Shown here: piece by piece, positions 140 through 62,971 of the stretch | Layout of the letters: each line of letters begins with the position of its first letter | Numbering within the stretch: the stretch's first letter is position 1 | Origin: an uncultured Gammaproteobacteria bacterium | Lineage (GTDB): Bacteria; Patescibacteriota; Microgenomatia; CAYQLK01 | Direction: 5' to 3' | Length of the DNA stretch: 64,000 nucleotides | Assembly (NCBI GenBank): GCA_964445355.1 | Contig: CAYUKQ010000003.1 | Coordinates: 3,693-67,692, forward strand | Position numbers and translations under genes: made by a program | The notes under the pieces: generated by a model | Told to the model about the DNA's origin: nothing | Seen by the model: only the letters and a program-made list of their open reading frames with translations | Databases searched by the model: none

Positions 140-180
140 ATCCCGTAGTATTTGATAAGAAAGAAATAAAATGTTAAAAT
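140..180 (+). promoter_or_regulatory. Motif-promoter module copy 1: ATCCCGTAGTA then TTGATA -35, 17-nt spacer, TAAAAT -10
   Basis: Hexamers and spacing read from the sequence; same module recurs at about 870, 2228, 5977(-), 41534(-), 46903(-), 59161 and 62961(-). Confidence 0.55.
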
Positions 181-225
181 ACTGCTTCGCAACTTCACAT
201 TTTCTGGCGAGGTGAGAGTGTAGCT

Positions 226-786
226 ATGGTTGCCGTGTCTGTTGACTTAGTCGGACATCGGTTCGACTGGGGTCACACTGACAGGGTGTGGCTCTATAAT
301 CAATTTATCACAGCTTGCCGTAAGGCAGGCCTTGATATTCGCATGACTGAGACCATGTTCAAGCTCAAGATCGGAACCCGGAACGAGTTTCTGGTTTTTG
401 ATTTTGCACGCTTTGTGACGGATCCGTCTCAGTCCCAGTACGTGCCGTTGGTTGCGGATGTCTACATCAGCTACTCAGACGATGAGGGAGTCGAGCATCT
501 CATCCGTCCAGCTGTTGTGGCTCGCGATCACAGCAAAGATCGGCACCCGATCGGGTGGGCATTCGAGACCGGCCGATTGATTCGGTACAACGGCCGTTTT
601 CAGACGTTCACTGTCGATTTTGGAGAACCGATCAGGTATATCCGTCCCAGAAAAAGTCGGCACCGTCCCAAGTATTTCGCTCTCGGTTCGGTAATTTTGG
701 CCTTTTACTGGGTCAAAAAATACCTTGCCAAACGAAGGAAAAAGAAACGATCCGAGCGTCATTTGTCGTCTAAGAGCGGCAAGTGA
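226..786 (+). CDS. Hypothetical protein, GC-rich (about 55% GC), C-terminal hydrophobic anchor plus basic tail (KRRKKKRSERH)
   Basis: ATG ORF of 186 aa, own promoter upstream and terminator downstream; composition differs from backbone; no recognisable domain. Confidence 0.6.
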   Translation: MVAVSVDLVGHRFDWGHTDRVWLYNQFITACRKAGLDIRMTETMFKLKIGTRNEFLVFDFARFVTDPSQSQYVPLVADVYISYSDDEGVEHLIRPAVVARDHSKDRHPIGWAFETGRLIRYNGRFQTFTVDFGEPIRYIRPRKSRHRPKYFALGSVILAFYWVKKYLAKRRKKKRSERHLSSKSGK

Positions 787-828
787 TCTGGGGGTTTCTG
801 ATTTTGAGTGGAGGTGTTAGCGACCTTT

Positions 829-862
829 GCGCTCTAGGTAATAACTAGGGCGCTTTTTTTTT
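829..862 (+). terminator. Rho-independent terminator (gcgctctag / ctagggcgc stem with one G-U pair, then T9)
   Basis: Hairpin followed by T-run immediately after the 226-786 stop. Confidence 0.65.
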
Positions 863-889
863 GCAAACTATCCTATAGTTTGATATAAT
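861..889 (+). promoter_or_regulatory. Promoter TTGCAA-N17-TATAAT with ATCCTATAGTT element (870-880) inside the spacer; GGAGG RBS at 915-919
   Basis: Consensus hexamers with 17-nt spacing; motif copy 2. Confidence 0.55.
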
Positions 890-925
890 CAGCCTTAAGA
901 ACGTTTAAATTCTGGAGGCTAGCTC

Positions 926-1345
926 ATGCCAACTTTGATGGTCATGGTCCACGACCATCGGCAGGTGTTCGTGAAGGGTGAGTTCGGGCTTCGCGCGGAT
1001 TTTGCTGCCAGCCTGGTCGACGGCGGGCTTGGGAATAGCTTCCGCTTCCATGGCCTGCCGATTACAGAAGCATACTTTCACATCGACGGAGATGCGGAGG
1101 TGCTAACGATCAGGTTGCACCCGCAAGATGATCGGGTCAACGGTGTTGATCGGCTTGAGTTGGTGTTCGATCACGACTCCAATAAGCCTTTCTATGCTGT
1201 TTACTCCCGCTTGTGTGCGTGTGGGGCTTACCAGTTCCGCGTACGCCATTCGGAGGCAGATTTGACTCACACTCTGAGTCGGATCGTGGTCTCGTATCGT
1301 GAAGTTCGCTTAGCAGAATCGGACGCCTCAACAGTAAAGCCGTAA
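926..1345 (+). CDS. Hypothetical protein, GC-rich cassette gene
   Basis: ATG ORF of 139 aa preceded by GGAGG 7 nt upstream and followed by a terminator; no recognisable domain. Confidence 0.6.
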   Translation: MPTLMVMVHDHRQVFVKGEFGLRADFAASLVDGGLGNSFRFHGLPITEAYFHIDGDAEVLTIRLHPQDDRVNGVDRLELVFDHDSNKPFYAVYSRLCACGAYQFRVRHSEADLTHTLSRIVVSYREVRLAESDASTVKP

Positions 1346-1361
1346 ACGCTCGTATTTCTCT

Positions 1362-1398
1362 GTGGCATCTGACTATTAGTCGGGTGCCACTTTTTTTA
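1362..1398 (+). terminator. Rho-independent terminator (GTGGCA...TGCCAC stem then T7)
   Basis: Inverted repeat plus T-run directly after the 926-1345 stop. Confidence 0.6.
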
Positions 1399-1415
1399 TG
1401 GTTTTTTCTTCAATC

Positions 1416-1444
1416 TGGACAAATTAGGCCTAGAGTATTAGAAT
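1416..1444 (+). promoter_or_regulatory. Promoter TGGACA-N17-TAGAAT followed by ATCCCGAG (partial element)
   Basis: Hexamers and 17-nt spacing read from the sequence. Confidence 0.45.
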
Positions 1445-1489
1445 ATCCCGAGCACTTTTGCAAAAAGAGAGGTTCGAAGCTAACTTGCC

Positions 1490-2107
1490 GTGGTTGAAGT
1501 GAAAACGGTTCGGATCCCGGTGTCGCAGGTTAACCGCGACAGATTCAGACACACGACCAGCAACGTTTTCGCGTGGCCGGACTTGGTGACTCAGCTCATC
1601 ATGTCCTCGTCGGCGGTCTTGGGGCGCAACAAGCCGGATGTCAACACTTTGGTGCTGGCCCGGGTCGAACAGGTCAGGCTGGATCAGCGGTTGCTGCTGC
1701 GATTCGTTGCGGCTGGCAACAACGAGGATTTGCACTTGGCGGGTGTGCGGATCGAGCACGGGAGCGAACGATTGGTTACTCCAATGGTTCTCGATTCGAT
1801 GCCGATGATGGCAGCCGTCAAGGGTGTGGCCGGCGTGCCTGGCCAGACCAAGCCACACCATGGTTTTGCCGTGGCATCGCTCAAGGGTATTCTGCCTCAG
1901 GCGCGTGCTTTGGTGCTTCAGCTGCAAGTCCCGCAAGGGGCGGAGGGGCACGTTTTCGGTTGTTTGGAGCCGGTGCGTGATTCGTCCGAGGGCGAAGAGG
2001 AAGTCGCGTTTTTCAGGCATCAGCGCAGATACCCGTCCGGCCAGGGGTACGCTCGGGTCCCTTCCGATGGACAGTATCCGTTGCGACGGCGGTTCACTCG
2101 GGACTAG
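1490..2107 (+). CDS. Hypothetical protein, GC-rich cassette gene (GTG start)
   Basis: 205-aa ORF co-oriented with flanking + promoters and terminators; the opposite-strand 241-aa ORF is R/H/Q-rich with no promoter and is judged spurious. Confidence 0.5.
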   Translation: MVEVKTVRIPVSQVNRDRFRHTTSNVFAWPDLVTQLIMSSSAVLGRNKPDVNTLVLARVEQVRLDQRLLLRFVAAGNNEDLHLAGVRIEHGSERLVTPMVLDSMPMMAAVKGVAGVPGQTKPHHGFAVASLKGILPQARALVLQLQVPQGAEGHVFGCLEPVRDSSEGEEEVAFFRHQRRYPSGQGYARVPSDGQYPLRRRFTRD

Positions 2108-2176
2108 CTCCGAGAAGACTGGTATTGCGATCGAGCAAGCAAGCCGCGTCTGCAACTTGTGCGGATCGAAACAAAG

Positions 2177-2214
2177 GGCGCCTCTGTAAAAAGAGGCGCT
2201 ATTTTTTATTTTAA
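2177..2214 (+). terminator. Rho-independent terminator (GGCGCCTCT...AGAGGCGC then TATTTTTTATTTT)
   Basis: Perfect 9-bp stem plus T-run after the 1490-2107 stop. Confidence 0.65.
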
Positions 2215-2227
2215 TGCTGATTTGGTT

Positions 2228-2268
2228 ATCCTGTAGTGTTGGATTTTTATTGTCGTTGTGGGTATAAT
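2228..2268 (+). promoter_or_regulatory. Motif-promoter module copy 3: ATCCTGTAGTG then TTGGAT, 18-nt spacer, TATAAT
   Basis: Read from the sequence; drives the 2351 gene. Confidence 0.55.
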
Positions 2269-2350
2269 CTCGGACTTAGTTCGTTAACAATCCTCGGGGC
2301 AGCCGAAAAAAGAAAGACAAAAATTCACCGCAAGCAAGGAGTATACGATC

Positions 2351-2800
2351 GTGGGAGTACAAACTCGGGTAAGTCATGTCGACTTTCACACACCTCTTGA
2401 TCACAGGACCAGAATGGTTCTGGAAGGGGGGCAGTTTGAGGCCTGGATTTCGGCCCTGGTCAGGGCAATCCAGGACAGTCAGCCGATTTGGCACAAATCG
2501 GTCGATGGCGTCAGAGTCGAGCCGATCTATCGGATGTATTTTCCTTACCGCAAGTGGCTGATCTTTGGCCTGAGTCTGCCTGAAGGCGGGTCGGGACTGA
2601 AGGTGGTCAACATTGAGTTCCAAACAGATCACCCCAACGTTCCCATCATCAATTCCAGGGTTTTCCCAGAAGGAATTTCGGGGGGAGACAAATTCGTCGG
2701 ATGGCGTTATTTTGACGCTGTCGAACTTCGCGACTACGCCAAGCAGCTGACCGGAATCCATTTTTCGGTTGAGCTGGTAACCACACAGGAGGAGGTCTAG
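2351..2800 (+). CDS. Hypothetical protein, GC-rich cassette gene (GTG start, AAGGAG RBS 7 nt upstream)
   Basis: 149-aa ORF with strong SD; preferred over the antisense 301-aa ORF 2276-3181, which has no promoter or RBS. Confidence 0.6.
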   Translation: MGVQTRVSHVDFHTPLDHRTRMVLEGGQFEAWISALVRAIQDSQPIWHKSVDGVRVEPIYRMYFPYRKWLIFGLSLPEGGSGLKVVNIEFQTDHPNVPIINSRVFPEGISGGDKFVGWRYFDAVELRDYAKQLTGIHFSVELVTTQEEV

Positions 2801-2891
2801 GTTTATCAAAACGTTACGCATTCCCCTGAGGAACCGGCGGTATTGGTGGGCACGCCAGCCGCAAGATCGAATTCCTGTACTGCTAAGCGAC

Positions 2892-3251
2892 ATGATCAAG
2901 CAGTCGGAAGATCCTGAAGGAGCGCTGCAAGGACTGATCCTGAGAGTCGAAGAAGCCAAGATTTTCGGAGCGCGAGCGGTTGCGTTCCGCTTGGAACGTG
3001 CTTTTAGTCGGGGGCCGAAGTTTGCGGCGAGAGTGTATCTCGAGTCTCTTGATGGGGTACGGTTGGAGGCTGCACCGTCAGCCGGCATCGACGGATCGGG
3101 AACGGGTAACCGGATTTTCATGTACAAGGAGTTCTTGACCGCTTTGGGTTCGGCAGATTGTCTGGTTTTTGAGGTCGACACTCTTGACTCTAATCCAGGC
3201 GTGTTTGTTCGAGCACTCCAGTCGGTCGGCAGCCGCCTCCGAAGATCTTGA
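2892..3251 (+). CDS. Hypothetical protein, GC-rich cassette gene
   Basis: 119-aa ATG ORF, co-directional and followed by a terminator. Confidence 0.55.
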   Translation: MIKQSEDPEGALQGLILRVEEAKIFGARAVAFRLERAFSRGPKFAARVYLESLDGVRLEAAPSAGIDGSGTGNRIFMYKEFLTALGSADCLVFEVDTLDSNPGVFVRALQSVGSRLRRS

Positions 3252-3269
3252 ACAGCAAAAGAGCAATAT

Positions 3270-3303
3270 GGGTACTTGTAGAAATACAGGTACCCTTTTT
3301 TTG
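3270..3303 (+). terminator. Rho-independent terminator (GGGTAC...GTACCC then T9) closing the five-gene GC-rich cluster
   Basis: Hairpin plus T-run; GC content falls to backbone level right after. Confidence 0.65.
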
Positions 3304-3511: not shown

Positions 3512-5128
3512 ATGAAAAGAATGTTAAAAAAAGTATATTTTGCCTTGATTTCGGTTTTTGCGGGGACTGTGTTAGCCACAGTGGCTGTAAGGGCGGCAGA
3601 CACGACGATCGTGGTGTTACCGGGCGATATGGCGACGAGTGTGGCAGATGTGATTGCAGATCCCAGTAAGTGGATGTTTTATAACGATGAAACTGACACA
3701 ATTGACAATTCACTTGGGTCGTTTGTTTTGGGCCCGGGAGTTACCCCGCTTGGTAATGATAGTATCCAGATCTCAGTCAGCGGTACTCAGAGGCGTAATT
3801 TGGCGACTTATCAATTCAGCGGTACGACCTTGTCTTCAATTACCGAGCTTAAGTTTAGTACTTTTAACCCATCGGCAGGAAATGGCGGAAGTGCCAGTCG
3901 TTCAGGATACTTGCATTTCAACGCAGATTTTAACGGTTCGGATACTTGGCAGAGAAGGTTGGTCTATGTGCCGTCCGTGAATGGGGCAGTGATACAGGAT
4001 ACTTGGCAGGAATGGGATGCAATAGATGGGGGAAATGCAAAATGGCTGTATTCCGGTTCAACCTGGCCGGTGACCGGGGAGCCGGGTTCGACGACAAAGA
4101 CTTGGAGTCAAATATTAAGTGACTATCCGTCGGTCAGGATGCGGGTTACAGATTCATTCTTGGGAATTCGTGTCGGTGAGCCGTATGCTGACGGATATAC
4201 AGAAAATATTGACGGTTTTAAGTTAGGGGTGAGTGGAAATACTAAGATATTTGATTTTGAGGCTTCGGTAGCGCCGGGTGTTCCGACAATTATTTTGCCG
4301 GCAAATAATGCTACGGTGACGAGTTCGGCACTAGTTAAGATCGATTGGACGGATTCGACTGGCGGTTCTAATCCACCGTTTGAATATATGTATGAAGCAT
4401 TTAACGATGCCGGGTATACGACGAGTATTTATACCAGCGCGTGGTTGTCAGTCTCCGAAATACCCACGCCGGGTACGTCACCTGGGGTATATTACGTTCG
4501 AGTTAAGGCTAGAAATGCATTAGGTGATGAGACTGCTTGGAGTAATGACGCCGTTAATCCATACAAAATTACGGTCATTGCTGATGGTCCGGTCTTGGTT
4601 GGGCCACCAACAGATAAGAATCAGTGCAAGAGGAACGGTTGGAGGGTATTTAATAATCCAACGTTTATCAATCAAGGTCAATGTGAAAAGTACGTTAAAG
4701 ATCACAGAGATGATGGCAAGGCGGAGGGGGATTTGCGTTTGATCAATCCTAATCAGAGGATCAAGTTCAAATTATCAGAGAAGGATGTCTCAAACTCTAA
4801 CCATCACAAATCAAAACATAATTATGTTGAATACTGGAATTATGAATATCCTGGTATTTTGCACTACAAAGCAAATGTGATCTGTGCTGAGGTTGATAAG
4901 ATCACAAAAGAAGCGCGTTTTGTATTCCAAATTCCACCAGGTTGGCCAGGTCTAACGGGCTTATATGTAACTGCTTATGTTAAGGATACGAAACAAAAAG
5001 GTGTTGCTGATCTTTATGGTCATGCAGCAACCGGTGATCTGACGATAGCTACGGCTTGGTGTGATACTGGTGTTGGGTTTGCTCCGGCAATGTACTCAGT
5101 TGTAAAAGGTAAAGTTGAAGTGAAATAA
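3512..5128 (+). CDS. Large secreted or surface protein (538 aa) with N-terminal signal peptide, Thr/Ser/Gly-rich beta-type repeats and C-terminal cysteines
   Basis: Signal peptide MKRMLKKVYFALISVFAGTVLATVAVRAA; GGAGAAAAAAATG RBS; backbone GC. Confidence 0.7.
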   Translation: MKRMLKKVYFALISVFAGTVLATVAVRAADTTIVVLPGDMATSVADVIADPSKWMFYNDETDTIDNSLGSFVLGPGVTPLGNDSIQISVSGTQRRNLATYQFSGTTLSSITELKFSTFNPSAGNGGSASRSGYLHFNADFNGSDTWQRRLVYVPSVNGAVIQDTWQEWDAIDGGNAKWLYSGSTWPVTGEPGSTTKTWSQILSDYPSVRMRVTDSFLGIRVGEPYADGYTENIDGFKLGVSGNTKIFDFEASVAPGVPTIILPANNATVTSSALVKIDWTDSTGGSNPPFEYMYEAFNDAGYTTSIYTSAWLSVSEIPTPGTSPGVYYVRVKARNALGDETAWSNDAVNPYKITVIADGPVLVGPPTDKNQCKRNGWRVFNNPTFINQGQCEKYVKDHRDDGKAEGDLRLINPNQRIKFKLSEKDVSNSNHHKSKHNYVEYWNYEYPGILHYKANVICAEVDKITKEARFVFQIPPGWPGLTGLYVTAYVKDTKQKGVADLYGHAATGDLTIATAWCDTGVGFAPAMYSVVKGKVEVK

Positions 5129-5162: not shown

Positions 5163-5200
5163 AGAAAAAACCCGCTCGTGCATGTAAGCATAAGCGGGTT
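5163..5200. terminator. Bidirectional intrinsic terminator (AACCCGCT...AGCGGGTT stem flanked by A-run and T-rich tail)
   Basis: Hairpin between convergent genes 3512-5128(+) and 5286-5819(-). Confidence 0.6.
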
Positions 5201-5285
5201 GTTGGTTGTTGTGGGGGTCAGAAGCTTGCTGATCTTTCGAGCGTTTCTGGCCCTCTAGGCTGAACGGCCCGGAGGAGTCGTGCTG

Positions 5286-5819
5286 CTAGGGATGGAAGAA
5301 GTGGGCGACGAGGTTGCCTTTGTGGCTCTCGGTCAGTACATGGTATTCCCACGTGCCCCAGATCGACCATTCGGGATTGCCGACGTAGCGCGGATCGTTT
5401 TGGCTAACGATTTGGTAGTGATACGCGCCGTTGCCGTCGTATCCGCTGCAGTGGATCATGTTCGAAATGACCCCATGGTCCATGTAGGGGTCGTTGTTGA
5501 AGTCGCCCTTGGTGTGGATGCGATAGAAGCAGGTCGAGAGTGTGTCGGCGTCGAGGTCGGCGATTTCGGTGATGCCGGGAGAAGTGTAGACTCGCCCATC
5601 GCCGAGATCCCAGTAGTAGTCACCTGTCGCGTCGTAGGCGTAGATGCTGTCGTACGTGCACACGACCTGGACACCGGCATCGCCGATGCCGTTATGGTCG
5701 GTGTCCCCGTTGCGGGGAATCATGCAGTTCGTGTTCTTGCCGCCGGCGGCCGAGACGGTCGCGGTTGTGACGAGCATGAGGCAGAAGAGTGCGGTGGTGA
5801 TCAGGATGAGTTTACGCAA
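5286..5819 (-). CDS. Secreted small Cys-, Asp- and Gly-rich protein, GC-rich cassette gene (TTG start, signal peptide)
   Basis: N-terminus MRKLILITTALFCLMLVTTATVSAAGG; about 58% GC; own promoter and terminator. Confidence 0.6.
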   Translation of the reverse strand: MRKLILITTALFCLMLVTTATVSAAGGKNTNCMIPRNGDTDHNGIGDAGVQVVCTYDSIYAYDATGDYYWDLGDGRVYTSPGITEIADLDADTLSTCFYRIHTKGDFNNDPYMDHGVISNMIHCSGYDGNGAYHYQIVSQNDPRYVGNPEWSIWGTWEYHVLTESHKGNLVAHFFHP

Positions 5820-5947
5820 GGTCAGAGTTACTCCTGTTTTTTGCAGAGATGTGAAAGATCAAAATGTTTCGCCCCCACGGCGGAACAAGTGCATTTTTGA
5901 CCAGAGCCAGCGGTTAAGCAGGTCCGGATCAATCAGTGCGATTGCGA

Positions 5948-5990
5948 ATTATAGGTTATAAATCTGTGATAATCAATCGTAAAAGGATAT
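5948..5990 (-). promoter_or_regulatory. Motif-promoter module copy 4 (minus strand): ATATCCTTTTACGA then TTGATT-N17-TATAAT
   Basis: Reverse complement of 5948-5990 read directly; drives 5819->5286. Confidence 0.5.
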
Positions 5991-15586: not shown

Positions 15587-15698
15587 GTTTGTTTTTGATA
15601 CGTTTAGATAAAAATTTTTTTGTGCAAGGGTTATAATTTTTCTTTTGTTGATGTAGTATATTAGGATCTTGTAGTGATCTTTTGTAACTATAAAAAAC

Positions 15699-28386: not shown

Positions 28387-28413
28387 GCGAAGAAAGGTAG
28401 AGAGGAGTGGCAG

Positions 28414-36630: not shown

Positions 36631-36639
36631 CGCCCGTTT

Positions 36640-37990
36640 AGCTTTCTGTATATCCTATAGTAATTAAATAAAATTAATTCTCATTGATCGTAATGGGTCT
36701 TGCGGATTGAGAGAAATTTCTATTGAGATCAAGACAATTAGAAAAGATAAGAGAAGGGGTGAAAAGAGAAAAATTGGATACCGATATTGAGATAGGGAAG
36801 TAAGGCGATTTAGCTTTAATGTTTGAATTTTTGATATAGTTTGATATACTTGTGAAAAATAGCGTGAAAACAAGTGTGAAAACTGATGACAGTTAAAGGC
36901 GGGGAGTGACAAACGTGTGTTTGTGGATAACTTATTTTGATCGTAGCTGGTCTTCGTCTGTTTAAGTAGGTGGTCATCTTGCCCTGTGTGATGCTTACAA
37001 GTATTGTTCTCTGTCAATTAGGTTGGAGTATGAAAATAGCTTTAAAATTGAGTGTTTATCCTATTGTAACAATCTAAATTATTAACATAAGACTCGAATA
37101 TTATAGGGTCTATTTAGCCTTGAATGCAGAGGTGTGTTGGTATCAGGTAGTAAGGGTGTAGGGACTAATAGCATTAATCAAGAACAAGGTAAAAGGATAG
37201 ATTGATTGAGCTTGTTATCTAGATCTGCACTGCTCCCAAGATAAGTGAGTCAGAAGTAAAAAATGATATGTCGTACAATATAACTTTTGCGACGTAAAAT
37301 AAAAAAAATGGAGTGGGGTTGAAAACCAATAAAAATTAGAAAAAACTTAAAAAAATGTTTTTTGAAAATTTTTTTTCTTTGATATATTTTGATTCTGCTT
37401 TCTTTTTTTCTGGGCCTATGATGATTAATTTGATATAGTTTTATACAATTGTGTAAATTTATATATTTTTTGCGGGATTTATGAGGTAAATGGCTGTAAA
37501 AATTAAAATTTATCCGATAGACTACCCTGCCCGACTAATAAAAAGCCGTTTTAGGCCCAATCAGGGGCTTTTAGCCTCAAATACTCGGTATTTTACAGCT
37601 GAGGTGGTATAAATCTTACTTGATTCCTGGACATTAAATATTCGGAGGCCAAATACTTGTTTGTTAAAAGGATTGTTTCGGAGATTATCGGTTTCTTGGC
37701 AAAATTATCCATAATCAGGCGGATTGTCTTGCTGAGTCTAGTCGTTGCAGTGCTTGCAAGCGCGACCGCTTGGATTGTGACTCAGGATGTGTCGTGGGCT
37801 TATGTAACGTTGTTCCTTGGAGCTTTTGCTTGGGCGGCTTTTGGTACCTCTGTTACACAAATCTCTCGGCTTGATTAAGGTTTTCGTCGCCTTGTACCGG
37901 TTTTTTAAATCTTAACCCACTATTTTTTGATGGGTTTAAGAATTGACTGACCGGTTTTTCTTAAAAAGTGATATGTCGCACAATGTGATA
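36640..37990. other. 1.35-kb AT-rich non-coding region with a perfect DnaA box (36922-36930 TGTGGATAA), several 7-8/9 DnaA-box-like sites, AT-tract (37320-37410), repeated TTGATATAGTTT and GTGAAAA elements and two copies of GATATGTCG(T/C)ACAAT
   Basis: No ORF over 75 aa on either strand; motifs read directly from the sequence. Confidence 0.5.
37657..37878 (+). CDS. Possible small two-TM membrane protein (TTG start, GGAGG RBS)
   Basis: 73-aa ORF with two hydrophobic helices; weak. Confidence 0.3.
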   Translation: MFVKRIVSEIIGFLAKLSIIRRIVLLSLVVAVLASATAWIVTQDVSWAYVTLFLGAFAWAAFGTSVTQISRLD

Positions 37991-38000
37991 GAGTGGATAT

Positions 38001-38972: not shown

Positions 38973-39053
38973 AAATAAAGATTATGGTCTGTGAAAACCC
39001 CACCTTACCAGGCCAAGTGCCCAGGGTAAGGTGGGAGTATAAAATGATTTCTT

Positions 39054-39386
39054 TCAGCACCAGAGTGATGTTTGGCAGACCAGAATGGTTGGCATAAACA
39101 AGAGGTCGTCGAGGTGCCATCGAGGCTGGGCATGCCTGACGCTTTTTGCAGCGCCAGTCAGCAGTTCGTAAGCCAGTTCGGGGGCCATGGTCAGGTCCTT
39201 GCCGGGTTCGCGCTTGGACACGATTGGGATCTGATCCAGGTCGAAATTGATTTGTGCAAGGCGATAGGTGGGTTTGTCCGGGCTTGGCTGGACTGGTTGG
39301 CCGTTAAAGTCGGTAAATATCGGGCGATGACGGAAAAGAACCAGACTCAGTCCGCGGCGGTTGGTACTGTTTTCAAAAAACACCAA
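39054..39386 (-). CDS. GC-rich hypothetical ORF; reading frame stays open upstream to about 39546 (directly after the SIMPL gene stop) with no canonical start before TTG 39386
   Basis: Protein-like 110-164-aa frame in a 57% GC patch; start unresolved. Confidence 0.4.
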   Translation of the reverse strand: MVFFENSTNRRGLSLVLFRHRPIFTDFNGQPVQPSPDKPTYRLAQINFDLDQIPIVSKREPGKDLTMAPELAYELLTGAAKSVRHAQPRWHLDDLLFMPTILVCQTSLWC

Positions 39387-39576
39387 CCTTGCAGCTGTCG
39401 GGTACTGTGTGAGGAGTGATTCAACTAGCCCGTCGAGTTGGGGGTGGCGCTTAAAAACTTTCGCGAACAGAGTCTTTCTCCCCTTTCCCTTCGGCGGTTT
39501 TTTGGTATACCACCGAATTTGTTTTTTTGGATTAAGGTGCTTAATCTAAGATATTATCAAATCGGGAAGGTATTTA

Positions 39577-40703: not shown

Positions 40704-40739
40704 AAGAAAAAGGCCCTGGTGCGTTTTGCACCAAGGCCC
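40704..40739 (-). terminator. Rho-independent terminator on the minus strand (GGGCCTTGGTGC-aaaac-GCACCAGGGCC then TTTTTCTT)
   Basis: 11-bp stem with one mismatch plus T-run on the reverse complement. Confidence 0.6.
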
Positions 40740-41497
40740 AGAGTTGTGGTCGGGGCGCAGTCCGTCAGGACCGAGCCCCGTCTATTTGCGGGTGGCATTT
40801 TCCGCTGCCGGCTTTGGCTCGCGATTGAGCCGGTGCCCACAGTCGGGGTTCATGCCCCCATGGTTTTACCTCGCGATCGAGGCCGCTGCCTTGTGCGTCA
40901 CGGCAGAAACGGTGGCGGCTGTTTTAAGGCGGCCACTTTTGGTCAATCGCAACGAGACTTTGTATCTCGGTGCGGGCCGGCCATATTCGCGGGCGGCCTT
41001 CGCTAGTGCCAGAGGATGACGGCACATTTTTGACATCTCCGGGGAGCGCGGACGGGCTGTCCGCGCTCCTTGCGGTCCCGAAAGCCCTCGGGACAACAGG
41101 TGAAAAAGGACAGGCACGGATAAGCCATAACCACTTTTTGCGCAGGTGGGTACCCGAGTCTCATGCGTAGAGACGCGAAGCCTGAACACCAGTGCTTGGT
41201 TGGTTTTGGCAGAGAGACACCAATTCTCTTCGTCCCCCCCCCAGAATAGGGAGTTCAGAGGAGTTATTAGTGTCAGCAAATCGTTCTCCTTGTCGATTCC
41301 GTGACGCATCCTGCCCCGCGCCCCTTTTCCCGACTAATCGGTAGGATCCCAGTGTGGGTAGTCCAGGGGGAAGCGCTTAGAGATATCAGTGTAAAAAACT
41401 GGATATTCCTAAGTGTTTCTCCCTGGATGGCTTTTGAAGCAGGAGTGCAAAGTCCTGATGATTTTTATATGTGCACAGCTAAAACAAATTAACTGCG
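40740..41497 (-). ncRNA. GC-rich (about 58%) transcribed unit of about 0.76 kb with no credible ORF: candidate structured ncRNA or decayed cassette. Contains a G9/C9 homopolymer (41234-41242) and two perfect hairpins (41043-41069, 41075-41094)
   Basis: Bounded by the consensus promoter (41504-41543) and the terminator (40704-40739); only ORF-like frames are low-complexity and overlap on both strands. Confidence 0.4.
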
Positions 41498-41503
41498 GGA
41501 GCC

Positions 41504-41543
41504 ATTATATATTATAGATGATTAATTGTCAAATACTATAGGG
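41504..41543 (-). promoter_or_regulatory. Motif-promoter module copy (minus strand): CCCTATAGTA then TTGACA-N17-TATAAT (perfect consensus)
   Basis: Reverse complement read directly; points into the GC-rich 40740-41497 unit. Confidence 0.6.
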
Positions 41544-41679
41544 TTCTCCAGATTACGCTGTAATCTTCGTGTCTTCTCTTCGAGCAGGCGTTGCTTTAGT
41601 TATGCGAATTATTCTCTGGGTTTAAGCTTGGGTTTTTCAGCTACGGGGCTGGATTTGGGTTTTGTGATCTTAGTTTTAG

Positions 41680-44202
41680 CTACTTTGGCAGTTTTTGTCT
41701 CTGAAGCTGGAAGGGGGGGGCTGATTTTTCCTCTTGCTCTTCTTTGGCGATAGTTGCTGTTGCTGAGACGGTATCGCCAGCTTTGCTAAAACGCATTAAG
41801 GTAACGCCTTGAGTGTCTCTACCGAGCCGGGGAATGTTTTTGATCGGCAGGCGGATGATCTGACCTTTTTTGGAAGTTAAGACCAGAGACTCATCGGACG
41901 AATTAATTAGTTCTGCAGAGACAATTTTACCAGTTTTGCTGGTAATATTGGCAGCTTTTACTCCTTTGCCTCCCCTACCCTGCATTGTCCAGACCGATGA
42001 GAAAGATTTTTTACCAAATCCGTTCTCAGTGACAATCAGTAGTTCGTCTTTATCATTATCGATGTGGCCTACTGTTAGTCCGATGACTGAGCCGTCGTTT
42101 TTGAGGTTGATTCCCCTAACCCCCCGAGTGTCCCGGGCGGTTGGGCGGATGTTTTTTTCATTGAACTTAATTGATTGTCCGTTATCAGCAACGATAAGAA
42201 TGTAGTCTGAGCCGCTGGTTAATTTGGCCCAACGGAGTTCGTCGCCGTTGTCGAGATTGATAGCGATAATACCAGTACGGCGGATATTGCTGAACTTAGA
42301 GATGGTCGTTTTTTTGACAATACCTTTTTTGGTTACCAGTAAAATATTGGCATCAGGCGATGTGGTCTTGGCGATCGGTAGTATAGATAATATTTCTTCC
42401 CGTTGCTCAATATCGATAAGATTAATGATCGCTTGACCTTTGGCGGTTCGTGAGCTTTCCGGTACTTCGTGCGTTTTAAGCTGGAAAACCCGGCCGCGAT
42501 TAGTAAAGAACATCAATGAATCGTGGGTTTGGCAGCGGATTAAGTGTGAGACGACGTCTTCTTCTTTGGTGGTAATACCGGAGATACCCTTGCCGCCACG
42601 GCGCTGAGTTTTGAAAGTATTGGGTAATTGGCGCTTGATGTAGCCTGTTTTGGTGATGGTTACGATGGTTGGTTCGTTAGCAATGAGGTCTTCTTCAGAA
42701 AATTCACCAATCTTGTTTTTGATGATCTTGGTGCGACGGGCATCACCATATTTTTCTTTGATCTCGATCAGTTCGGTCTTGGCGAGTTGAAGGATTTTTT
42801 CTGGATGCGCAAGTAGGTCTTCTAAATAAGCAATCAATTCACGAACCTGCTTAAGCTCTTCTTCGATCTTGAGCCTTTCCAGTGCAGCTAAACGTCTTAG
42901 TTGCATATCCAAAATCGCCACAGCTTGAAGTTCTGAAAGTTTGAATTTGGACATTAATTGGGTTTTGGCTGTTTCGACATCAGCAGCGGCTCGAATAATA
43001 CGGATCACTTCGTCAATGTTGTCGACGGCAATTTTTAGCCCCTCGAGGATATGTTCTCTGGCTTTGGCCGCTTTGAGATCGAATTCACTGCGTTTGGTAA
43101 TTACATTCTGACGGTGCTTAATAAACTCGTGAAGCATGATGTTAAGAGTCATAGTTTGGGGAATTCCGTCGATCAGTCCAACCGCATTGACCGAAAAACT
43201 CTGTTGCATACTGGTGAGTTTGAAGAGATTGTTTAGGGTGGATTGTGGTTTGGCATCGCGTCGGAGTTCGATCGTAATACGCATACCCTTGCGATCGGAG
43301 TCGTCACGCAGATCGGCGATACCCTGAATCTTTTTGTTGCGTACGAGATCAGCGATTTTTTGGATCAAGACTGATTTGTTGACCTGGTACGGAAGTTCGG
43401 TAACTACAATTTGGAATTTGCCGTTTTTCCGCTCTTCAATATCGGCTTTGGCTCGGGTAATTATTCGGCCACGACCGGTAGCGTAAGCAGCGGTGATCTC
43501 TGTTTGGTCGTAGACGATTCCTCCGGTTGGAAAATCGGGTCCTTTGATAAATTGCAGCAGATCTTCGACTGAAGCTTCCGGGTTGTCGATTAGGTGCGTG
43601 GTCGCGTCAATGACTTCGCTTAAGTTGTGAGGAGGAATACTGGTGGCCATACCGACGGCAATACCATTCACCCCATTAAGTAAGAGATTCGGAATAACGG
43701 CCGGAAGCAGATCCGGTTCTTTGAGTGTACCGTCGAAGTTGTCGGTCCAGGTGACAGTGTCTTTGTCGATATCGCGTAAAAGTTCGTTGGAGATTGCAGC
43801 CATACGGCATTCTGTATAACGCATTGCAGCTGCAGGATCCCCGTCGATTGAGCCGAAGTTGCCTTGGCCATCGATCAATGGATAGCGGAGTGAAAAATCC
43901 TGAGCCATTCTAACTAGGGCTTCGTAAACCGGACTATCGCCGTGGGGGTGATATTTACCCAGTACCTCGCCGACAACCTTGGCACATTTTGAGTAGTGAG
44001 CTGAATGTGTTAAGCCAATCTTATACATGGCGTAGATGATGCGGCGTTGCACTGGTTTGAGACCGTCGCGTACGTCAGGAAGTGCACGTGCGACAATAAC
44101 ACTCATGGCGTAGTCGAGATATGAGCGTTTCATCTCGGCGACAATGCCACTTTCGATGACTTTGCCGATATAATCGATGTTGGTTACAGTATTTTCTGCC
44201 AT
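41680..44202 (-). CDS. gyrA: DNA gyrase subunit A
   Basis: Near-full-length match to the GyrA pattern (AAMRYTE active-site Tyr region, C-terminal beta-pinwheel repeats). Confidence 0.95.
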
Positions 44203-46250: not shown

Positions 46251-46293
46251 TAAAAAAAGACCCGAATTTACCGTTTATAGATAAATGCGGGTC
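46251..46293 (-). terminator. Rho-independent terminator on the minus strand (GACCCG...CGGGTC then T7) after the Nudix gene
   Basis: Hairpin plus A-run on plus, i.e. T-run on minus. Confidence 0.55.
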
Positions 46294-46319
46294 GGTGGTC
46301 GGGTTCTGTTTCGGCGTTG

Positions 46320-46841
46320 TTACTTCATCCGCCTGGTTTTTGCAATCACTGTTTGCCGGATGAAGACCGCCTGTTCTTGGATGATGTCTTCGGGCAGTCT
46401 GCTTACCGGGAAAAACTGTCCGACTGTGGGTGTGCTTTGAGCCAGTGCCGTGTGAATGATCGAGAGACCAACGCCGCGGGTAACTCCATGGAAGTACATA
46501 CCGGTGTGTGTCGGACGGCTGATGGACATGCCACCGAGCTCTTCGCTGACGATTCGGTTGATGGCCAGATCGAAGCGGTCGCCCGGCTTGTCGAGGTCTG
46601 TTGCACGCAGGAGCGTGCCCGGTACGTGCCATAGTCCCGGGAAGTAGGGGTCGTCCTCTTCCCTTTTGGTTAGGAGGACTTCCGACTGCTTCGCTGTCGG
46701 GTGGAAGATTACCAGTTCGATGTACGGCAGGGCCATTGTTTCTGCAATCGCGTAGAAAACTTGCGGTGGCAGAAGTTGGCCGTGAAAGCTGCGCAGGTAC
46801 TCTGCGACAGCATCATCAGACGGCTTGTGGTCTGTTCCCAA
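46320..46841 (-). CDS. Nudix-family hydrolase, GC-rich cassette gene
   Basis: Nudix box G(X5)E(X7)REUXEEXGU matched by GTLLRATDLDKPGDRFDLAINRIVSEELGG; about 58% GC. Confidence 0.7.
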   Translation of the reverse strand: MGTDHKPSDDAVAEYLRSFHGQLLPPQVFYAIAETMALPYIELVIFHPTAKQSEVLLTKREEDDPYFPGLWHVPGTLLRATDLDKPGDRFDLAINRIVSEELGGMSISRPTHTGMYFHGVTRGVGLSIIHTALAQSTPTVGQFFPVSRLPEDIIQEQAVFIRQTVIAKTRRMK

Positions 46842-46872
46842 AACTCCTCCGATTTAATGAGCTATGGGTCTT

Positions 46873-46913
46873 ATTGTACGATATTTTGGCTCAAAAATCA
46901 AATACTATAGGAT
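46873..46913 (-). promoter_or_regulatory. Motif-promoter module copy (minus strand): ATCCTATAGTA then TTGATT-N17-TACAAT, GGAGG RBS before ATG 46841
   Basis: Reverse complement read directly; abuts the holB stop. Confidence 0.55.
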
Positions 46914-55116: not shown

Positions 55117-55118
55117 GT

Positions 55119-58258: not shown

Positions 58259-58260
58259 AT

Positions 58261-59160: not shown

Positions 59161-59201
59161 ATCCTATAGTATTTGAATTAATGTCTAAATAATGATATAA
59201 T
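59161..59201 (+). promoter_or_regulatory. Motif-promoter module copy: ATCCTATAGTA then TTGAAT-N17-TATAAT
   Basis: Read directly; followed by AAGGAG at 59217. Confidence 0.6.
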
Positions 59202-59207
59202 CAAGGG

Positions 59208-59456
59208 AGTTAGCTTAAGGAGAAGCATCTTTTTGGTTGATGAAGAGTTGGTTTGGGTAGGTCGAGGTTTTCATCGAGATCTTCGGAGAATCCGATTCCC
59301 CTGCCGCTCTGATCGCAGAGCCGGATGCTGAGTTCGTGAGGTTCGTTCTGGCTCAGCGTGCCAGCGAATTACCGAAAGAGCTTGTCTCTGCATTGCAGAA
59401 GATCGCGTCAAGCCACGGTGTTACGCTGTAGCTGGGCACAAGGGCTCTCATTAATT
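59208..59456 (+). other. GC-rich (about 56%) mini-transcription unit of about 0.25 kb: candidate small ORF (longest ATG/GTG/TTG frames about 31-33 aa, none with a convincing start) or sRNA
   Basis: Bounded by the consensus promoter and the terminator; an AAGGAG element follows the predicted transcription start. Confidence 0.4.
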
Positions 59457-59491
59457 CCCCGTTTCAGGTTTTACCTGGCGGGGATTTTTTT
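59457..59491 (+). terminator. Rho-independent terminator (CCCCG...CGGGG with inner CAGG/CCTG, then T7) overlapping the 3-prime end of convergent trmD
   Basis: Hairpin plus T-run. Confidence 0.55.
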
Positions 59492-60118: not shown

Positions 60119-60197
60119 AGTGGTTTTTTACTTATACAAAAATCCGAATATAGAGATTGTGTAGTCTGTAAGGAGGTAGTATTTACTGCGTAAAAAA

Positions 60198-60427: not shown

Positions 60428-60655
60428 TTATTTTGCCATTAGTGAGCGTACAGTAGGAGAAAGTTGAGCGCCGTTTTTGACCCAATTTTCAATTCGTTCC
60501 TTATTAAGTTCGATAGATGCCGGTTGGGTTTTGGGATTGTAAGTGCCAAGGATCTCAAGGAATTTTCCGTCTCTTGGGCCACGAGAATCCACCGCAATTA
60601 CTCGGTATGTTGGATTGCCTCTTTTGCCGGTTCTAGTAAGTCTAATTTTTACCAT
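60428..60655 (-). CDS. rpsP: 30S ribosomal protein S16
   Basis: MVKIRLTRTGKRGNPTYRVIAVDSR S16 signature. Confidence 0.9.
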   Translation of the reverse strand: MVKIRLTRTGKRGNPTYRVIAVDSRGPRDGKFLEILGTYNPKTQPASIELNKERIENWVKNGAQLSPTVRSLMAK

Positions 60656-60706
60656 AATTAAGTTAGTATTTATGCTTAAGCGATTATACTGGCAATTGAA
60701 GCTGTG

Positions 60707-61456
60707 TCAAGCTTGGCTTTTTGTATTATTACTTAGGTTTTGAAGCGCAGCTTTAGCTGCTTCCTGCTGGGCTTCTTGTTTACTGTTGCCGGTTCCTGTA
60801 CCTGATACGACTCGATTGATCGAAACTTCAACTGTGAATGTTTTGGCGTGATCAGGACCGCTTTCGGATACGGTTTTGTAAAAAGGTGAACTTTTGAAGC
60901 GTTTTTGTACGGTTTCTTGTAGCCGGCTTTTAGGGTCGAGCAGTGAATTTTCTAAATCTTCGGACGGTTTTTTGAGTAAGGTTCGGAAAACGAATTTTTT
61001 GGCTGTGGAGATGCCGGAATCGAGAAAAATTGCTCCAAGTACCGCTTCGTATGTGTTGGCCAGAATCGATTTTGTCTTTACTCCGCCCCGTTCATGCTCT
61101 CCTTTAGAGAGGAATAGGAATTTGGCTAAATCCAGTTGAGTCGTCATGTCGGCCAGACTTTCGGTGCGGACTAGAACTGAGCGGTAGTGAGTGAGTATTC
61201 CCTCTTTTTGGTCCGGGTAAGTTAAATATAGCTGTTCAGAGACAATTAGTGACAGGACACTGTCGCCGAGGAATTCTAGTCGTTCGTTGTCGTGAGTAAA
61301 AACCGTATCCGGTGCCGATACTTCGTTAAGGTAAGATCGATGTACAAATGCATTAGCAAGAAGTTTTGGATTTTTAAACTTAACTCCGATTGCCTTTTCT
61401 GCTTCAGCGACTGGGAAATTGTCGTAAAGAAGTTCGGTATTGGTTTTTTTGGTCAC
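60707..61456 (-). CDS. rnc: Ribonuclease III
   Basis: NERLEFLGDSVL RNase III signature plus C-terminal dsRBD. Confidence 0.9.
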   Translation of the reverse strand: MTKKTNTELLYDNFPVAEAEKAIGVKFKNPKLLANAFVHRSYLNEVSAPDTVFTHDNERLEFLGDSVLSLIVSEQLYLTYPDQKEGILTHYRSVLVRTESLADMTTQLDLAKFLFLSKGEHERGGVKTKSILANTYEAVLGAIFLDSGISTAKKFVFRTLLKKPSEDLENSLLDPKSRLQETVQKRFKSSPFYKTVSESGPDHAKTFTVEVSINRVVSGTGTGNSKQEAQQEAAKAALQNLSNNTKSQA

Positions 61457-61473
61457 AATAAAATTTTTGTAAT

Positions 61474-61704
61474 TTAAAGTTTGTCCTCAACTTCCGATGC
61501 CAAATCGTGAACGGTATTGATCTCCTCAATGTCAGAGTGGGTTAAGTCGATGTCAAACTCTTCCTCCAGAGCGGTAAGGATATCTTTTATTTCGAGTTCT
61601 GATAGATTAAGGTCAATTCTGAGGTCGGAGGTTTCGTTAACATCCTCAATGAGATTGCCTGTTACTTCTGCAACGATTTTGATAACTTGGTTTAGTGTTT
61701 CCAT
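61474..61704 (-). CDS. acpP: Acyl carrier protein-like
   Basis: 76-aa acidic four-helix pattern with a Ser in the DLNLSELE region; position in rnc-acpP-nusB neighbourhood. Confidence 0.6.
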   Translation of the reverse strand: METLNQVIKIVAEVTGNLIEDVNETSDLRIDLNLSELEIKDILTALEEEFDIDLTHSDIEEINTVHDLASEVEDKL

Positions 61705-61749
61705 AGCTAAACTGTATCTTACAGGAAAAAAATATCAAAAAACAACCCT

Positions 61750-62157
61750 TTATTTTTCTACTTTATCAACTTCTGTTTGTTCCTTTGGTTGGCTTTCAGG
61801 CTGAGGAATTTCCTTGACGACCGATCCAAGTACACCATTAACGAATGAGCTGGTATGTTCATTGCCAAATTCTTTGCCAAGTTCGATCGCTTCATCAATA
61901 ACAACCTTTTGCGGTTGGGTCTTGTCGAGTGTTAATTCATAGACAGCCAGACGTAAAACAGCTAGGTCGATTTTGGAGATTTGGTCAATCGGCCAGGCGG
62001 GTGCATTTTTTGCGATTAGTTCGTCAATTTGGTCGAGATGTTTAGTAATCGGGATAATTTCGGAAAAATCTGCCTGAGTATTGTCAAATTCGTAAGCAAA
62101 GAGCATGCGTACAAGTCTGATTCTGTGCTTGTGGCGCGGATCGGTTTTTGATTTCAT
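61750..62157 (-). CDS. nusB: Transcription antitermination factor NusB
   Basis: NusB-family helical pattern (RHKHRIRLVRMLFAYEF, LAVYEL). Confidence 0.8.
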   Translation of the reverse strand: MKSKTDPRHKHRIRLVRMLFAYEFDNTQADFSEIIPITKHLDQIDELIAKNAPAWPIDQISKIDLAVLRLAVYELTLDKTQPQKVVIDEAIELGKEFGNEHTSSFVNGVLGSVVKEIPQPESQPKEQTEVDKVEK

Positions 62158-62494
62158 CGCTTAGCTTGTTTGGCTTATCTTAATTACGATTATACCTGAA
62201 TTAGACAAAATAAATCCTATTGCCGAAGTGATTATTTAAGTGATTTTGGGAAAAACTGATAACAAAGGTTAATAGCTGCGTGTTTTGTACGTATTGCAGC
62301 TTGGGCAAATACGGTGAGGAAGTTTGGGTGAGTTACAATTTTTGCACAGGACGGTTTTGACGCCTGCAACTGATAATGTTGCTCGTCTTTTGCCTTGTCT
62401 GACGTTCGATAAATGTTTTTTTGGTACTGGTGCCATTTATTTTGTTAGTTTGTTTGCTGGGGAATTATATACAAGGCTAATTTTTAAGTCAAAC

Positions 62495-62531
62495 ATAAAA
62501 AATCCCCGCGAACTAATAAAAGTTGCGGGGA
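62495..62531 (-). terminator. Rho-independent terminator on the minus strand (CCCCGCAACT...AGTTCGCGGGG then ATTTTTTAT)
   Basis: Perfect hairpin plus T-run on the reverse complement, right after the 62542 stop. Confidence 0.6.
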
Positions 62532-62541
62532 GGATTGTGTT

Positions 62542-62889
62542 TTATACACAAAGGCGGGTGAGGACTTGGACAACCTCGTGAAGGTGTTGACGGTTGGTCT
62601 CGCCGAGCTGGCTGCGGCGAAGGATTGGGTTCAAGTGCTCTTCAACTAAATGCTGAGAGAGCAGTCGAACGCATTCGGGGTCGCGACGGTCAGGTTGGGC
62701 CAGACAATGCTGCAGTTCACGCTCATAGTTCCTGACGTTGGGATCGGGATTGACCAGTGAGTTCAGATCAAGCGCTGGGGTTTTTGGTGGGGTGTAGGTA
62801 TGTTTTGGCTGTTCTGCTGTTGGGGTAACCGTAGCAGCGACTGGGAGGCGCTTTGTTTTTTTGACTCTTTTTTTGTCTTTCTTAGACAC
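62542..62889 (-). CDS. Hypothetical basic protein, GC-rich cassette gene (GTG start, AAAGGAAAT RBS)
   Basis: 115-aa ORF, about 57% GC, own motif-promoter and terminator. Confidence 0.55.
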   Translation of the reverse strand: MSKKDKKRVKKTKRLPVAATVTPTAEQPKHTYTPPKTPALDLNSLVNPDPNVRNYERELQHCLAQPDRRDPECVRLLSQHLVEEHLNPILRRSQLGETNRQHLHEVVQVLTRLCV

Positions 62890-62931
62890 GAATCTTATTT
62901 CCTTTGCAAGGTGCTGGTTTGTCAGTCCGGA

Positions 62932-62971
62932 ATTTTAGACTCTTTATGAGGTATTTTCAATACTAGAGGAT
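62932..62971 (-). promoter_or_regulatory. Motif-promoter module copy (minus strand): ATCCTCTAGTA then TTGAAA-N17-TAAAAT
   Basis: Reverse complement read directly; drives 62889->62542. Confidence 0.55.

Follow-up and report, generated by a model that had tools for sequence, protein, structure and literature searches.

A conserved 11-nucleotide element marks the promoters of GC-rich accessory cassettes in a Patescibacteria chromosome

The 64,000-nucleotide stretch of contig CAYUKQ010000003.1 (assembly GCA_964445355.1) analysed here, which we call the window, is a piece of the chromosome of an uncultivated, ultra-small member of the Patescibacteria, or Candidate Phyla Radiation (CPR), with a GC content of about 0.41-0.43. 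Its genes include dnaB, gyrB/gyrA, a type IV pilus cluster, ruvC, yebC, rpsP, trmD, rpmF and recG, its GC skew is positive across the entire window, and the ENA metagenome ERZ28615168 (MUNK22-1) and several Logan assemblies hold identical or near-identical pieces of it. Among these genes lie GC-rich accessory cassettes (c1 to c9), and at their promoters stands a recurrent 11-nucleotide (nt) element. A conserved tag on such cassettes points to an undescribed control system for accessory genes.

An earlier note, made from the letters of the window alone, had reported this element, and its recurrence is real: the string ATCCYVTAGTR is over-represented, with six exact matches (140, 2228, 36652 and 59161 on the forward strand, 46913 and 62971 on the reverse strand) against 0.15 expected, a number reached in 0 of 100 shuffles. 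With one mismatch allowed there are 12 matches against 5.7 expected; the copies at 870, 37058 and 41544 are plausible, and those at 15666, 22777 and 33246 are at chance level. The element-only variants named in the note fared unequally: 36652 (+) is exact and 37058 (+) plausible, while the other three look like chance, the match at 37512 and 62205 being unconvincing and 15666 lying 23 nt before the ctpA ATG, too near for the architecture described below. All promoter-linked copies are oriented in the same way as the unit downstream of them. The exact copy at 36652..36662 (+), ATCCTATAGTA, is an orphan with no usable -35 or -10 hexamer; it lies inside a 1.35-kb AT-rich non-coding stretch and is identical in strain L001.

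The cassettes follow one order, with the element, a sigma-70-type core promoter, a short leader with a ribosome binding site (RBS), a GC-rich open reading frame (ORF) and an intrinsic terminator. As had been claimed, the promoter-linked copies point exclusively into GC-rich units, and tests of composition agree. Each of these units has a promoter and a terminator of its own. The 300 nt downstream of element promoters have a GC content of 0.50-0.57, compared with a mean of 0.43 at 97 other promoter-like sites (Mann-Whitney p = 4e-4), and the GC content at third codon positions (GC3) is 0.53-0.81 in the cassettes versus 0.39-0.45 in dnaB, ctpA, recG, xer and gyrB. The statement that housekeeping promoters lack the element also holds, for rpsP (60710, 12/12 in the core) and rpmF (62492, 11/12) as well as for dnaB, gyrB, pilB, HSP20 and SIMPL. 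When c1-c3 are compared with a related species, substitutions fall mostly at codon position 3 (0.35-0.48 vs 0.08-0.15), so that these three are real genes; a non-coding nature was ruled out on the same ground. Among 5.8 billion proteins c1 has only two homologues, and so does c3; both count as ORFans. Apart from a weak NUDIX match for c7, the cassettes have no Pfam or NCBIfam matches, and they have neither PHROG nor PADLOC (defence-system) matches. Rfam scans at the gathering threshold over the window and 18 hit loci gave only tRNAs, so the GC-rich units are not known RNAs, and exact-sequence lookups of c1, DnaB and P0158 found no record.

The cassettes c1-c4 are the rightmost members of an array in which 13 or more units, all on one strand, repeat the order terminator, element, promoter, RBS and GC-rich ORF; contig L089 (1-4800) extends the window leftward and adds at least eight cassettes past its left edge. 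Eleven of the 12 array promoters carry the element, no array unit has a Pfam match, and the genes bordering the array encode a protease-like and a secreted protein. Together with the single ones between housekeeping genes, the tagged cassettes number about seventeen. Some array members are paralogues (c1 with L089_841, and L089_1440 with L089_1991); L089_3907 resembles the latter two by eye only, through a shared motif in the translation, with no BLAST hit. The related species L280 (63-83% protein identity) has the same array less one unit compared with L089. At the holB-gyrB site, where c7 lies in the window, cassette content varies among close relatives: L150 (a 91% GyrB relative) has two NUDIX-like cassettes, one of each promoter type defined below, and L093 (90%) has a single cassette with a degenerate element.

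Phage morons are independent units with their own promoter and terminator and a deviant GC content (PMC3594210). The cassettes resemble them in their own sigma-70-type promoter and intrinsic terminator, in a base composition that differs from that of their neighbours (GC3, downstream GC), and in their position between unrelated genes (holB|gyrB, pilO|trmD, recG|rpmF) with a content that varies among relatives. They differ in being chromosomal, among holB, gyrB, pilO, trmD, recG and rpmF with no recognisable prophage, and in sharing a sequence tag; we know of no common sequence tag in morons.

The consensus of the element can be written (A/t)(T/c)CC-Y-R-TAGT-(A/g)(T). In a logo built from 45 non-redundant instances the information is confined to the TG, the -10 and the stretch that begins 3 nt before the CC and ends with the -35; C, C and G are invariant, and the information peaks at the CC and at the G of TAG. 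The logo contains no second half-site or dyad partner, with zero information upstream of the element (beyond its position -3), and the partial palindrome ATCCTA|TAGTAT is disrupted by the Y-R variation. The reverse complement, TACTATAGGAT, resembles the T7 promoter, presumably by coincidence; a T7-like promoter on the opposite strand was rejected because of the variation at the Y-R positions and because its transcripts would run, in antisense, into the terminator upstream.

The element occurs in two fixed arrangements relative to the core promoter. The earlier note had described a single module in which it is fused to the -35; this is the commoner arrangement, but about one third of the cassette promoters have the element in the spacer. 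In the commoner arrangement, which we call type I, the element abuts the -35 (element-T-TTGAnn-17 nt-TAnAAT), as at 140, 2228, 41544(-), 46913(-), 59161 and 62971(-); the copy at 5948-5990(-), which had been listed with them, is degenerate, retaining only ATCC and matching 6/12 positions. Type I accounts for five or six array promoters, the distance from CC to the -10 is 32-33 nt, and with the promoters as assigned the element spans about -47 to -37. In type II it lies in the spacer directly before a TGn-extended -10, with 9-13 nt (mostly 12) from CC to the -10; five array promoters, the first L150 cassette and one L048 promoter are of this kind. To it belong the copy at 870-880, correctly placed by the note within the spacer of another promoter (TTGCAA-17-TATAAT), and a variant copy, GGCCTAGAGTA, at 1427-1437 in the spacer of the c3 promoter (1416-1444), which had been overlooked. 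The commonest offset between the two types is 21 bp, that is, two helical turns, and the element is always flush against a sigma-contacted motif, usually the -35 and in a minority the TGn-extended -10. The idea that type II promoters are hidden type I promoters was dropped, there being no usable -10 33 nt downstream except possibly in c2.

This geometry bears on the suggestion that the element is part of an extended -35 read by an alternative sigma factor. Such a factor would account for an element that is limited to one gene class and abuts the -35. The hexamers, however, are of the canonical sigma-70 type: TTGAnn (up to TTGACA), TAnAAT often with TG and a 17-nt spacer are what the primary sigma recognises, and they cannot be told apart from the housekeeping promoters of the window. 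Since the element also stands next to the -10, in a second position relative to the hexamers, we regard an alternative sigma specificity as highly improbable.

A further motif, AGTTCATTAA (matched at 8/10 or better), begins 5-10 nt after the -10 in both types, at about the predicted transcription start, and it supports the -10 assignments. Of 102 element promoters 14 contain it, compared with 2.2% of random 40-mers; in the window it lies at 2277-2286, 46855-46864 (-) and 41480-41489 (-), and it occurs also in L089, L093, L150, L019, L022, L030 and L055, so that two lineages share it. We consider it a candidate leader or RNA element or a second binding site. Transcription is predicted to start about 7 nt after each assigned -10.

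Of the four array cassettes within the window, all on the forward strand, c1 has a type I promoter (140..180; ATCCCGTAGTA-T-TTGATA-17-TAAAAT), followed within 226..862 by an ORF at 226-786 (186 amino acids, C-terminal transmembrane segment, GC3 0.58) and an intrinsic terminator at 829-862; promoter, leader and terminator are about 97% identical in L091/L280, and the coding sequence is 83% identical at the protein level. The type II promoter of c2 (861..889; TTGCAA-17-TATAAT) carries the element ATCCTATAGTT (870-880) directly before TGA-TATAAT, kept in L091/L280 as an ACCC variant, and drives an ORF at 926-1345 with a terminator at 1362-1397 (unit 926..1397). For c3 the promoter, again type II (1416..1444; TGGACA-17-TAGAAT with the variant element in the spacer), has CCTAGAGTATTAGAAT identical in L280; the ORF is at 1490-2107 (GC 0.60) and the terminator at 2177-2206 (unit 1490..2206). 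The type I promoter of c4 (2228..2268; ATCCTGTAGTG-TTGGAT-18-TATAAT) has the leader motif AGTTCGTTAA 9 nt after the -10 and serves a two-gene unit, c4/c4b (2351..3302), with ORFs at 2351-2800 and ~2825/2892-3251 and a terminator at 3270-3302.

Beyond the array, c5 (5165..5988, reverse strand) has a promoter at 5948-5988 (TTGATT-17-TATAAT) with the degenerate element ATCCTTTTACGA, an ORF at 5286-5819 (GC3 0.81) and a terminator at 5165-5199. On the same strand, c7 lies between holB and gyrB: its element overlaps the holB stop codon in a type I promoter (46873..46913), the leader motif AGCTCATTAA follows 9 nt after the -10, and the unit 46252..46841 holds an ORF at 46320-46841, encoding a divergent NUDIX protein of a broad family (GC3 0.65), and its own terminator at 46252-46293. 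With that terminator, and an element-free gyrB promoter at 46242-46213, the unit is separate from gyrB. The type I promoter of c8 (59161..59201, +; ATCCTATAGTA-T-TTGAAT-17-TATAAT with TG) precedes a short GC-rich unit (59202..59491) with a terminator at 59457-59491; within 59202-59456 the frame that starts at an RBS-preceded TTG runs for only 33 codons, and a longer GC-rich frame is without a start codon; c8 may encode a small protein or an RNA, or may be a frameshifted gene. Finally, c9 (reverse strand) begins 6 nt after the recG stop with a type I promoter that has no T linker (62932..62971; ATCCTCTAGTA-TTGAAA-17-TAAAAT), followed by an ORF at 62542-62889 (115 amino acids) and a terminator at 62497-62530 (unit 62497..62889), downstream of which lies the element-free rpmF promoter.

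The cassette c6, on the reverse strand, differs from these. Its type I promoter (41504..41544; ACCCTATAGTA-T-TTGACA-17-TATAAT) is an ACCC variant with a 12/12 core, the best among the modules, and its transcript of about 780 nt (40711..41497, strong terminator at 40739-40711) is GC-rich. The 781 nt have a flat GC profile over the three codon positions, a minimum free energy (MFE) z-score of -8.4 and indels relative to strain L001; a scan of the region at E<=1 gave no Rfam family, on which account tmRNA and RNase P were dropped as identities, and there is no counterpart in the other loci. It is probably a non-coding structured RNA, and a candidate for a new large one. In the neighbouring region (L001 13350-14147 vs window 41332-41738) the GyrA of L001 has a different C-terminal tail, 33 amino acids longer, L001 has an additional small promoter-terminator unit, and its c6 promoter context differs, keeping only ATAGTAC-TTGACA.

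The earlier description of the element as the conserved 5' end of a cassette family is accurate, as 11/12 array promoters carry it and the isolated cassettes begin with it, and raises the possibility of a recombination or cassette-capture site, like attC/attI in integrons, found at promoters only as the 5' boundary of a cassette. Nearly every cassette does have the element at its 5' end, isolated ones start 0-10 nt from the upstream housekeeping stop codon, content varies at one locus, and the orphan exact copy and the one-mismatch copy lie beside a tyrosine recombinase gene (38001-38972). Integrons are also arrays of short same-strand, mostly ORFan genes of deviant composition and variable content, with a short boundary sequence. 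Their cassettes, however, are promoterless, with a 3' attC hairpin and an adjacent IntI, whereas each tagged unit has its own promoter and terminator, its tag is 5' and forms no hairpin, and no integrase adjoins the array. The 3' ends of the window cassettes are ordinary, mutually unrelated intrinsic terminators with no attC-type inverted repeat; no inverted or second copy of the element is found there, all exact copies are in promoter orientation, and no attC-like structure, target duplication or terminal inverted repeats were seen. Moreover, 30 kb separate the only recombinase from the array, and it resembles the single housekeeping Xer, the strain differences between L001 and the window do not break at the element, and its fixed abutment to sigma-contacted motifs is left unexplained. 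A role in recombination is hence quite improbable.

The conservation of the element can be followed in seven orthologous intergenic regions, compared between L089/window and L280. Element positions are conserved at 72/77 (94%), the -35 hexamer at 93% and the -10 hexamer at 95%, against 67% for other intergenic positions (element vs other, Fisher p = 1e-7). Purifying selection on the element thus equals that on the promoter hexamers. The copies located in spacers (type II) are conserved in IG4, IG7, c2 and c3, and type I spacers diverge, for example at 8/17 positions in IG6; conserved copies amid drifting spacers argue for a sequence-specific reader other than sigma or the C-terminal domain of the polymerase alpha subunit (alpha-CTD).

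How widely is the element distributed? A strict composite, ATCCYNTAGTATTTGA-N18-20-TANAAT, has 59 matches in 596 Gb of species-representative genomes, against about 6.5 by chance on our own estimate with uniform base composition. Twenty-six of the 59 are in metagenome-assembled genomes (MAGs) labelled Saccharibacteria, WWE3, Woese-, Gottesman-, Davies-, Levyi- or Dojkabacteria or 'Patescibacteria group', and the composite is present in at least seven CPR candidate phyla. Another 18 are in third-party annotation (TPA) MAGs titled 'uncultured Gammaproteobacteria', 11 of which share cassettes, promoters or gene order with CPR-labelled MAGs, the remaining seven being grouped by label alone; the other 15 are scattered elsewhere, and several are conserved coding sequences. 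These Gammaproteobacteria labels look wrong: L011, L022, L030, L036, L048, L061 and others so named have near-identical promoters, cassette proteins or gyrA-SIMPL synteny, and their counterparts are labelled Saccharibacteria, Woesebacteria or Levyibacteriota. Outside the lineage of the window the downstream genes encode secreted or envelope proteins, an M23 peptidase, an SPFH-like protein, GlpX, an XRE regulator and ORFans, as well as a DEAD-box-type helicase recognised by sequence motifs only, outside the Pfam-scanned set; they are often, not always, GC-enriched. Orthologues at 36-40% identity in different CPR classes (L015 vs WWE3 L024/L035) have kept the motif.

Ordinary CPR promoters do not carry it. 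In an unselected sample of 67 CPR loci (614 kb), picked only by GyrB homology, the composite matches twice, against 0-2 in shuffles, with one convincing match (L150), and none of 235 strong promoter-like sites in this sample matches the element at 9/12 or better. A general CPR promoter consensus was ruled out by this gyrB-neighbourhood sample, and the element instead defines a patchy special promoter class. Nor did a phage origin of the module hold up: no CCYR-type module was found in IMG/VR and there were no PHROG matches. The full pattern has 20 matches in IMG/VR. Leaving aside three, they fall on a single conserved coding sequence that low-GC phage contigs have in common and that matches a Lacinutrix (Flavobacteriaceae) MAG as well; the shorter TAGTATTTGACA-N16-18-TATAAT has at least 120 matches there, mostly after an A-tract and none after CCYR. 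Small phage contigs of one large family (L160-L279, GC ~0.39) have AAAAA-TAGTATTTGACA-N17-TATAAT upstream of one conserved gene, and TAGTAT before a -35 is therefore not unique to CPR.

In one lineage (CAYOLO/CAYGDF/CAYGIG) the whole promoter has been reused before unrelated ORFs, including the spacer TTTAGCCTCAAAAG, the leader AGTTCATTAA and the terminator. In L030, for instance, the same terminator hairpin, AGCCCTCCCCTAAAAAGGAGGGCT, stands after unrelated cassettes at 1463-1486, 2142-2165 and 3996-4017 (-), and the spacer TTTAGCCTCAAAAG recurs too. Such reuse would be expected if shared descent were all there is. The 11-mer, with no reader of its own, would then persist as part of a recently copied 'mobile promoter' that had been duplicated, or moved horizontally, together with moron-like cassettes. 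The partial paralogy of array members, the missing unit in L280, the differing content of the holB-gyrB site among close relatives and the patchiness across CPR all fit this account. It does not fit with an element that is 94% identical between L089 and L280 where neutral intergenic sequence is 67% identical, that is still carried by the distant orthologues in different CPR classes, and that is kept where the rest of the module is rearranged, as in type II. Shared descent explains the spread of the element, not its conservation, and as a full explanation we judge it unlikely. Transposable repeats of the miniature inverted-repeat (MITE) or Correia kind also differ: the cross-lineage logo has no conservation outside the element-to-leader span, and the flanks of the copies are unrelated.

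We therefore favour, tentatively and at somewhat less than an even chance, the reading that the element is a putative operator of a dedicated trans-acting regulator of the moron-like cassettes, with a repressor or gatekeeper as the favoured form. The earlier note had offered an operator among its options; the proposal is partly supported, and it fits best because the 11-mer is C/G-specific, asymmetric and strongly selected, belongs to one gene class and occupies two positions in the polymerase footprint, including the spacer, where RNA polymerase reads no bases, under selection like that on the hexamers. The element would then be a cis-element read by a protein, presumably one other than RNA polymerase, that tags the promoters of stand-alone accessory cassettes, and a factor bound at either position would have to touch or exclude RNA polymerase. 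Two points favour repression: the core promoters already come close to consensus, and activation from within a 17-nt spacer is hard to envisage. Such a regulator would give coordinated control of at least 17 cassettes, the array of at least 13 plus the single ones among housekeeping genes. The modules would have spread by tandem duplication of whole units and probably also by horizontal transfer, which would explain their patchy occurrence across CPR lineages.

Several observations weigh against an operator. The direction of control, repression, is something we purely infer, and there is no obvious regulator gene in the window and the array. Classical repressor operators are dyads or direct repeats, and a lone asymmetric 11-12-mer is unlike them. 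In other CPR lineages 49 instances show a CC to -10 distance of 33 nt and 12 one of 32 nt, a spacing that the search pattern itself fixed, and 12 of 96 other strong promoters in the CPR match loci have a recognisable copy in the same register; so rigid a -35 register is more typical of direct RNA polymerase contact or of a class II activator. Since TAGTAT precedes TTGACA in unrelated phage promoters, part of the element may be ordinary promoter context. A possible reader is an MmyB-like XRE helix-turn-helix gene (about 266 amino acids, at least 241 homologues, source names Levy- and Daviesbacteria) that adjoins an element promoter in two unrelated genomes, L033 (5863-6752) and L283/L284 (L283 10001-10960 = L284 6528-7480). 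In one of the two the element lies upstream, and in the other it follows the gene, 15 nt beyond the stop codon. The homologues in L281 and L285 have no element nearby, none is present in the 64-kb window, and the link, which is post hoc and held in one of three further homologues tested, is a weak lead.

The main rival to the operator reading is an enhancer intrinsic to RNA polymerase, that is, an UP-like element or extended -35 read by alpha-CTD or sigma region 4 at very strong constitutive promoters. UP elements lie at about -38 to -59; their proximal subsite, known from E. coli rrnB P1, has the consensus AAAAAARNR and an alpha-CTD site at -46 to -38. Type I copies, just upstream of the -35 at -47 to -37, occupy that very position in a fixed register (most copies, including every cross-phylum one, stand rigidly 1 nt away from the -35), and like UP elements they are optional and found at a minority of promoters. 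Conservation at the class level would be expected if polymerase itself reads the element, and the recurrence of TAGTAT before TTGACA in phage promoters is in keeping with this. But the element is not A/T-rich, its C, C and G being invariant, and it is missing from the strongest housekeeping promoters of the window, those of rpsP and rpmF, as well as essentially from the 235 strong promoter-like sites of unselected CPR DNA. About a third of the array promoters have an equally conserved copy in the spacer, a position that neither alpha-CTD nor sigma region 4 can use. We consider an intrinsic enhancer possible, though doubtful.

The element can also be compared with known regulatory sites. LexA and CtsR boxes are likewise short conserved sites that overlap the RNA polymerase region of strong promoters in a dispersed gene set, vary in position relative to the hexamers between members and are conserved over long phylogenetic distances; those, however, consist of dyads or direct repeats to which dimers bind, and the element has one asymmetric stretch of 11-12 nt, set exactly against a hexamer. 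The class II marbox of MarA/SoxS and the Spx-alpha-CTD element (-44) share its asymmetry and its fixed orientation and register relative to the -35, but their promoters usually have a weak -35, unlike the near-consensus core promoters of the cassettes, and they offer no parallel to the copies within a spacer. The early promoters of T4 and T5 offer a parallel in that many small ORFan genes stand behind a near-identical promoter conserved well beyond the hexamers; their extensions are A/T-rich, UP-like and read by the host polymerase, unlike the chromosomal, C/G-specific element described here. What we describe is hence a combination of known kinds, a regulon operator or promoter-proximal element with moron-like cassettes, and we have not found the tag on them described. 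Our literature search gave no relevant description of a CPR promoter element or of the motif string, and neither promoters nor cassettes come up in a recent survey of horizontal transfer among Patescibacteria (PMC12455944).

We speculate further, although we think it unlikely, that the element belongs to an 'expression tag' system, in which a candidate factor reads the 11-nt tag and thereby licenses or gates fast-evolving, compositionally foreign ORFans and at least one large structured RNA. The module (tag, promoter, leader AGTTCATTAA and terminator) would be copied before new genes by duplication and by transfer from CPR to CPR. If true, this would be a sequence-tag counterpart of xenogeneic silencing and counter-silencing, in organisms thought to be nearly without transcriptional regulation.

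Patescibacteria have tiny genomes with few recognisable regulators and very many genes without functional annotation, and their control of transcription is almost unexplored. The tag singles out a set of rapidly evolving GC-rich ORFans as a ready-made candidate regulon, whose members are plausible candidates for host-interaction or conflict functions in episymbionts. It is a handle for retrieving the reader, predicts co-expressed accessory genes in thousands of MAGs and also flags the possible new 780-nt structured RNA of c6, while the tagged promoters are candidate strong promoters for the emerging genetic systems of CPR.

Some further features of the region deserve mention. The stretch at 36631-38000 that holds the orphan element (36652) and the one-mismatch copy (37058) also has a perfect DnaA box (~36925) and repeated 'gatatagttt' motifs and adjoins the tyrosine recombinase gene; it is probably not oriC, because the GC skew does not switch there. 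A GC-rich unit (~0.54) at 39000-39530 (-) has a terminator and no element, with an MFE z-score of about -4.2 and equally good ORFs on both strands. At 27514-29073, pyrF and a pyrE-like phosphoribosyltransferase gene have a GC content of 0.55 and a GC3 of 0.59-0.60 in a genome of 0.41 GC; with neither the element nor a separate strong promoter, the pair was probably acquired horizontally via another route. In two Woesebacteria-type MAGs, gyrA (L036 1997-5932, L049 4614-8000) matches in two pieces about 1.2 kb apart, which suggests an intein or another insertion.

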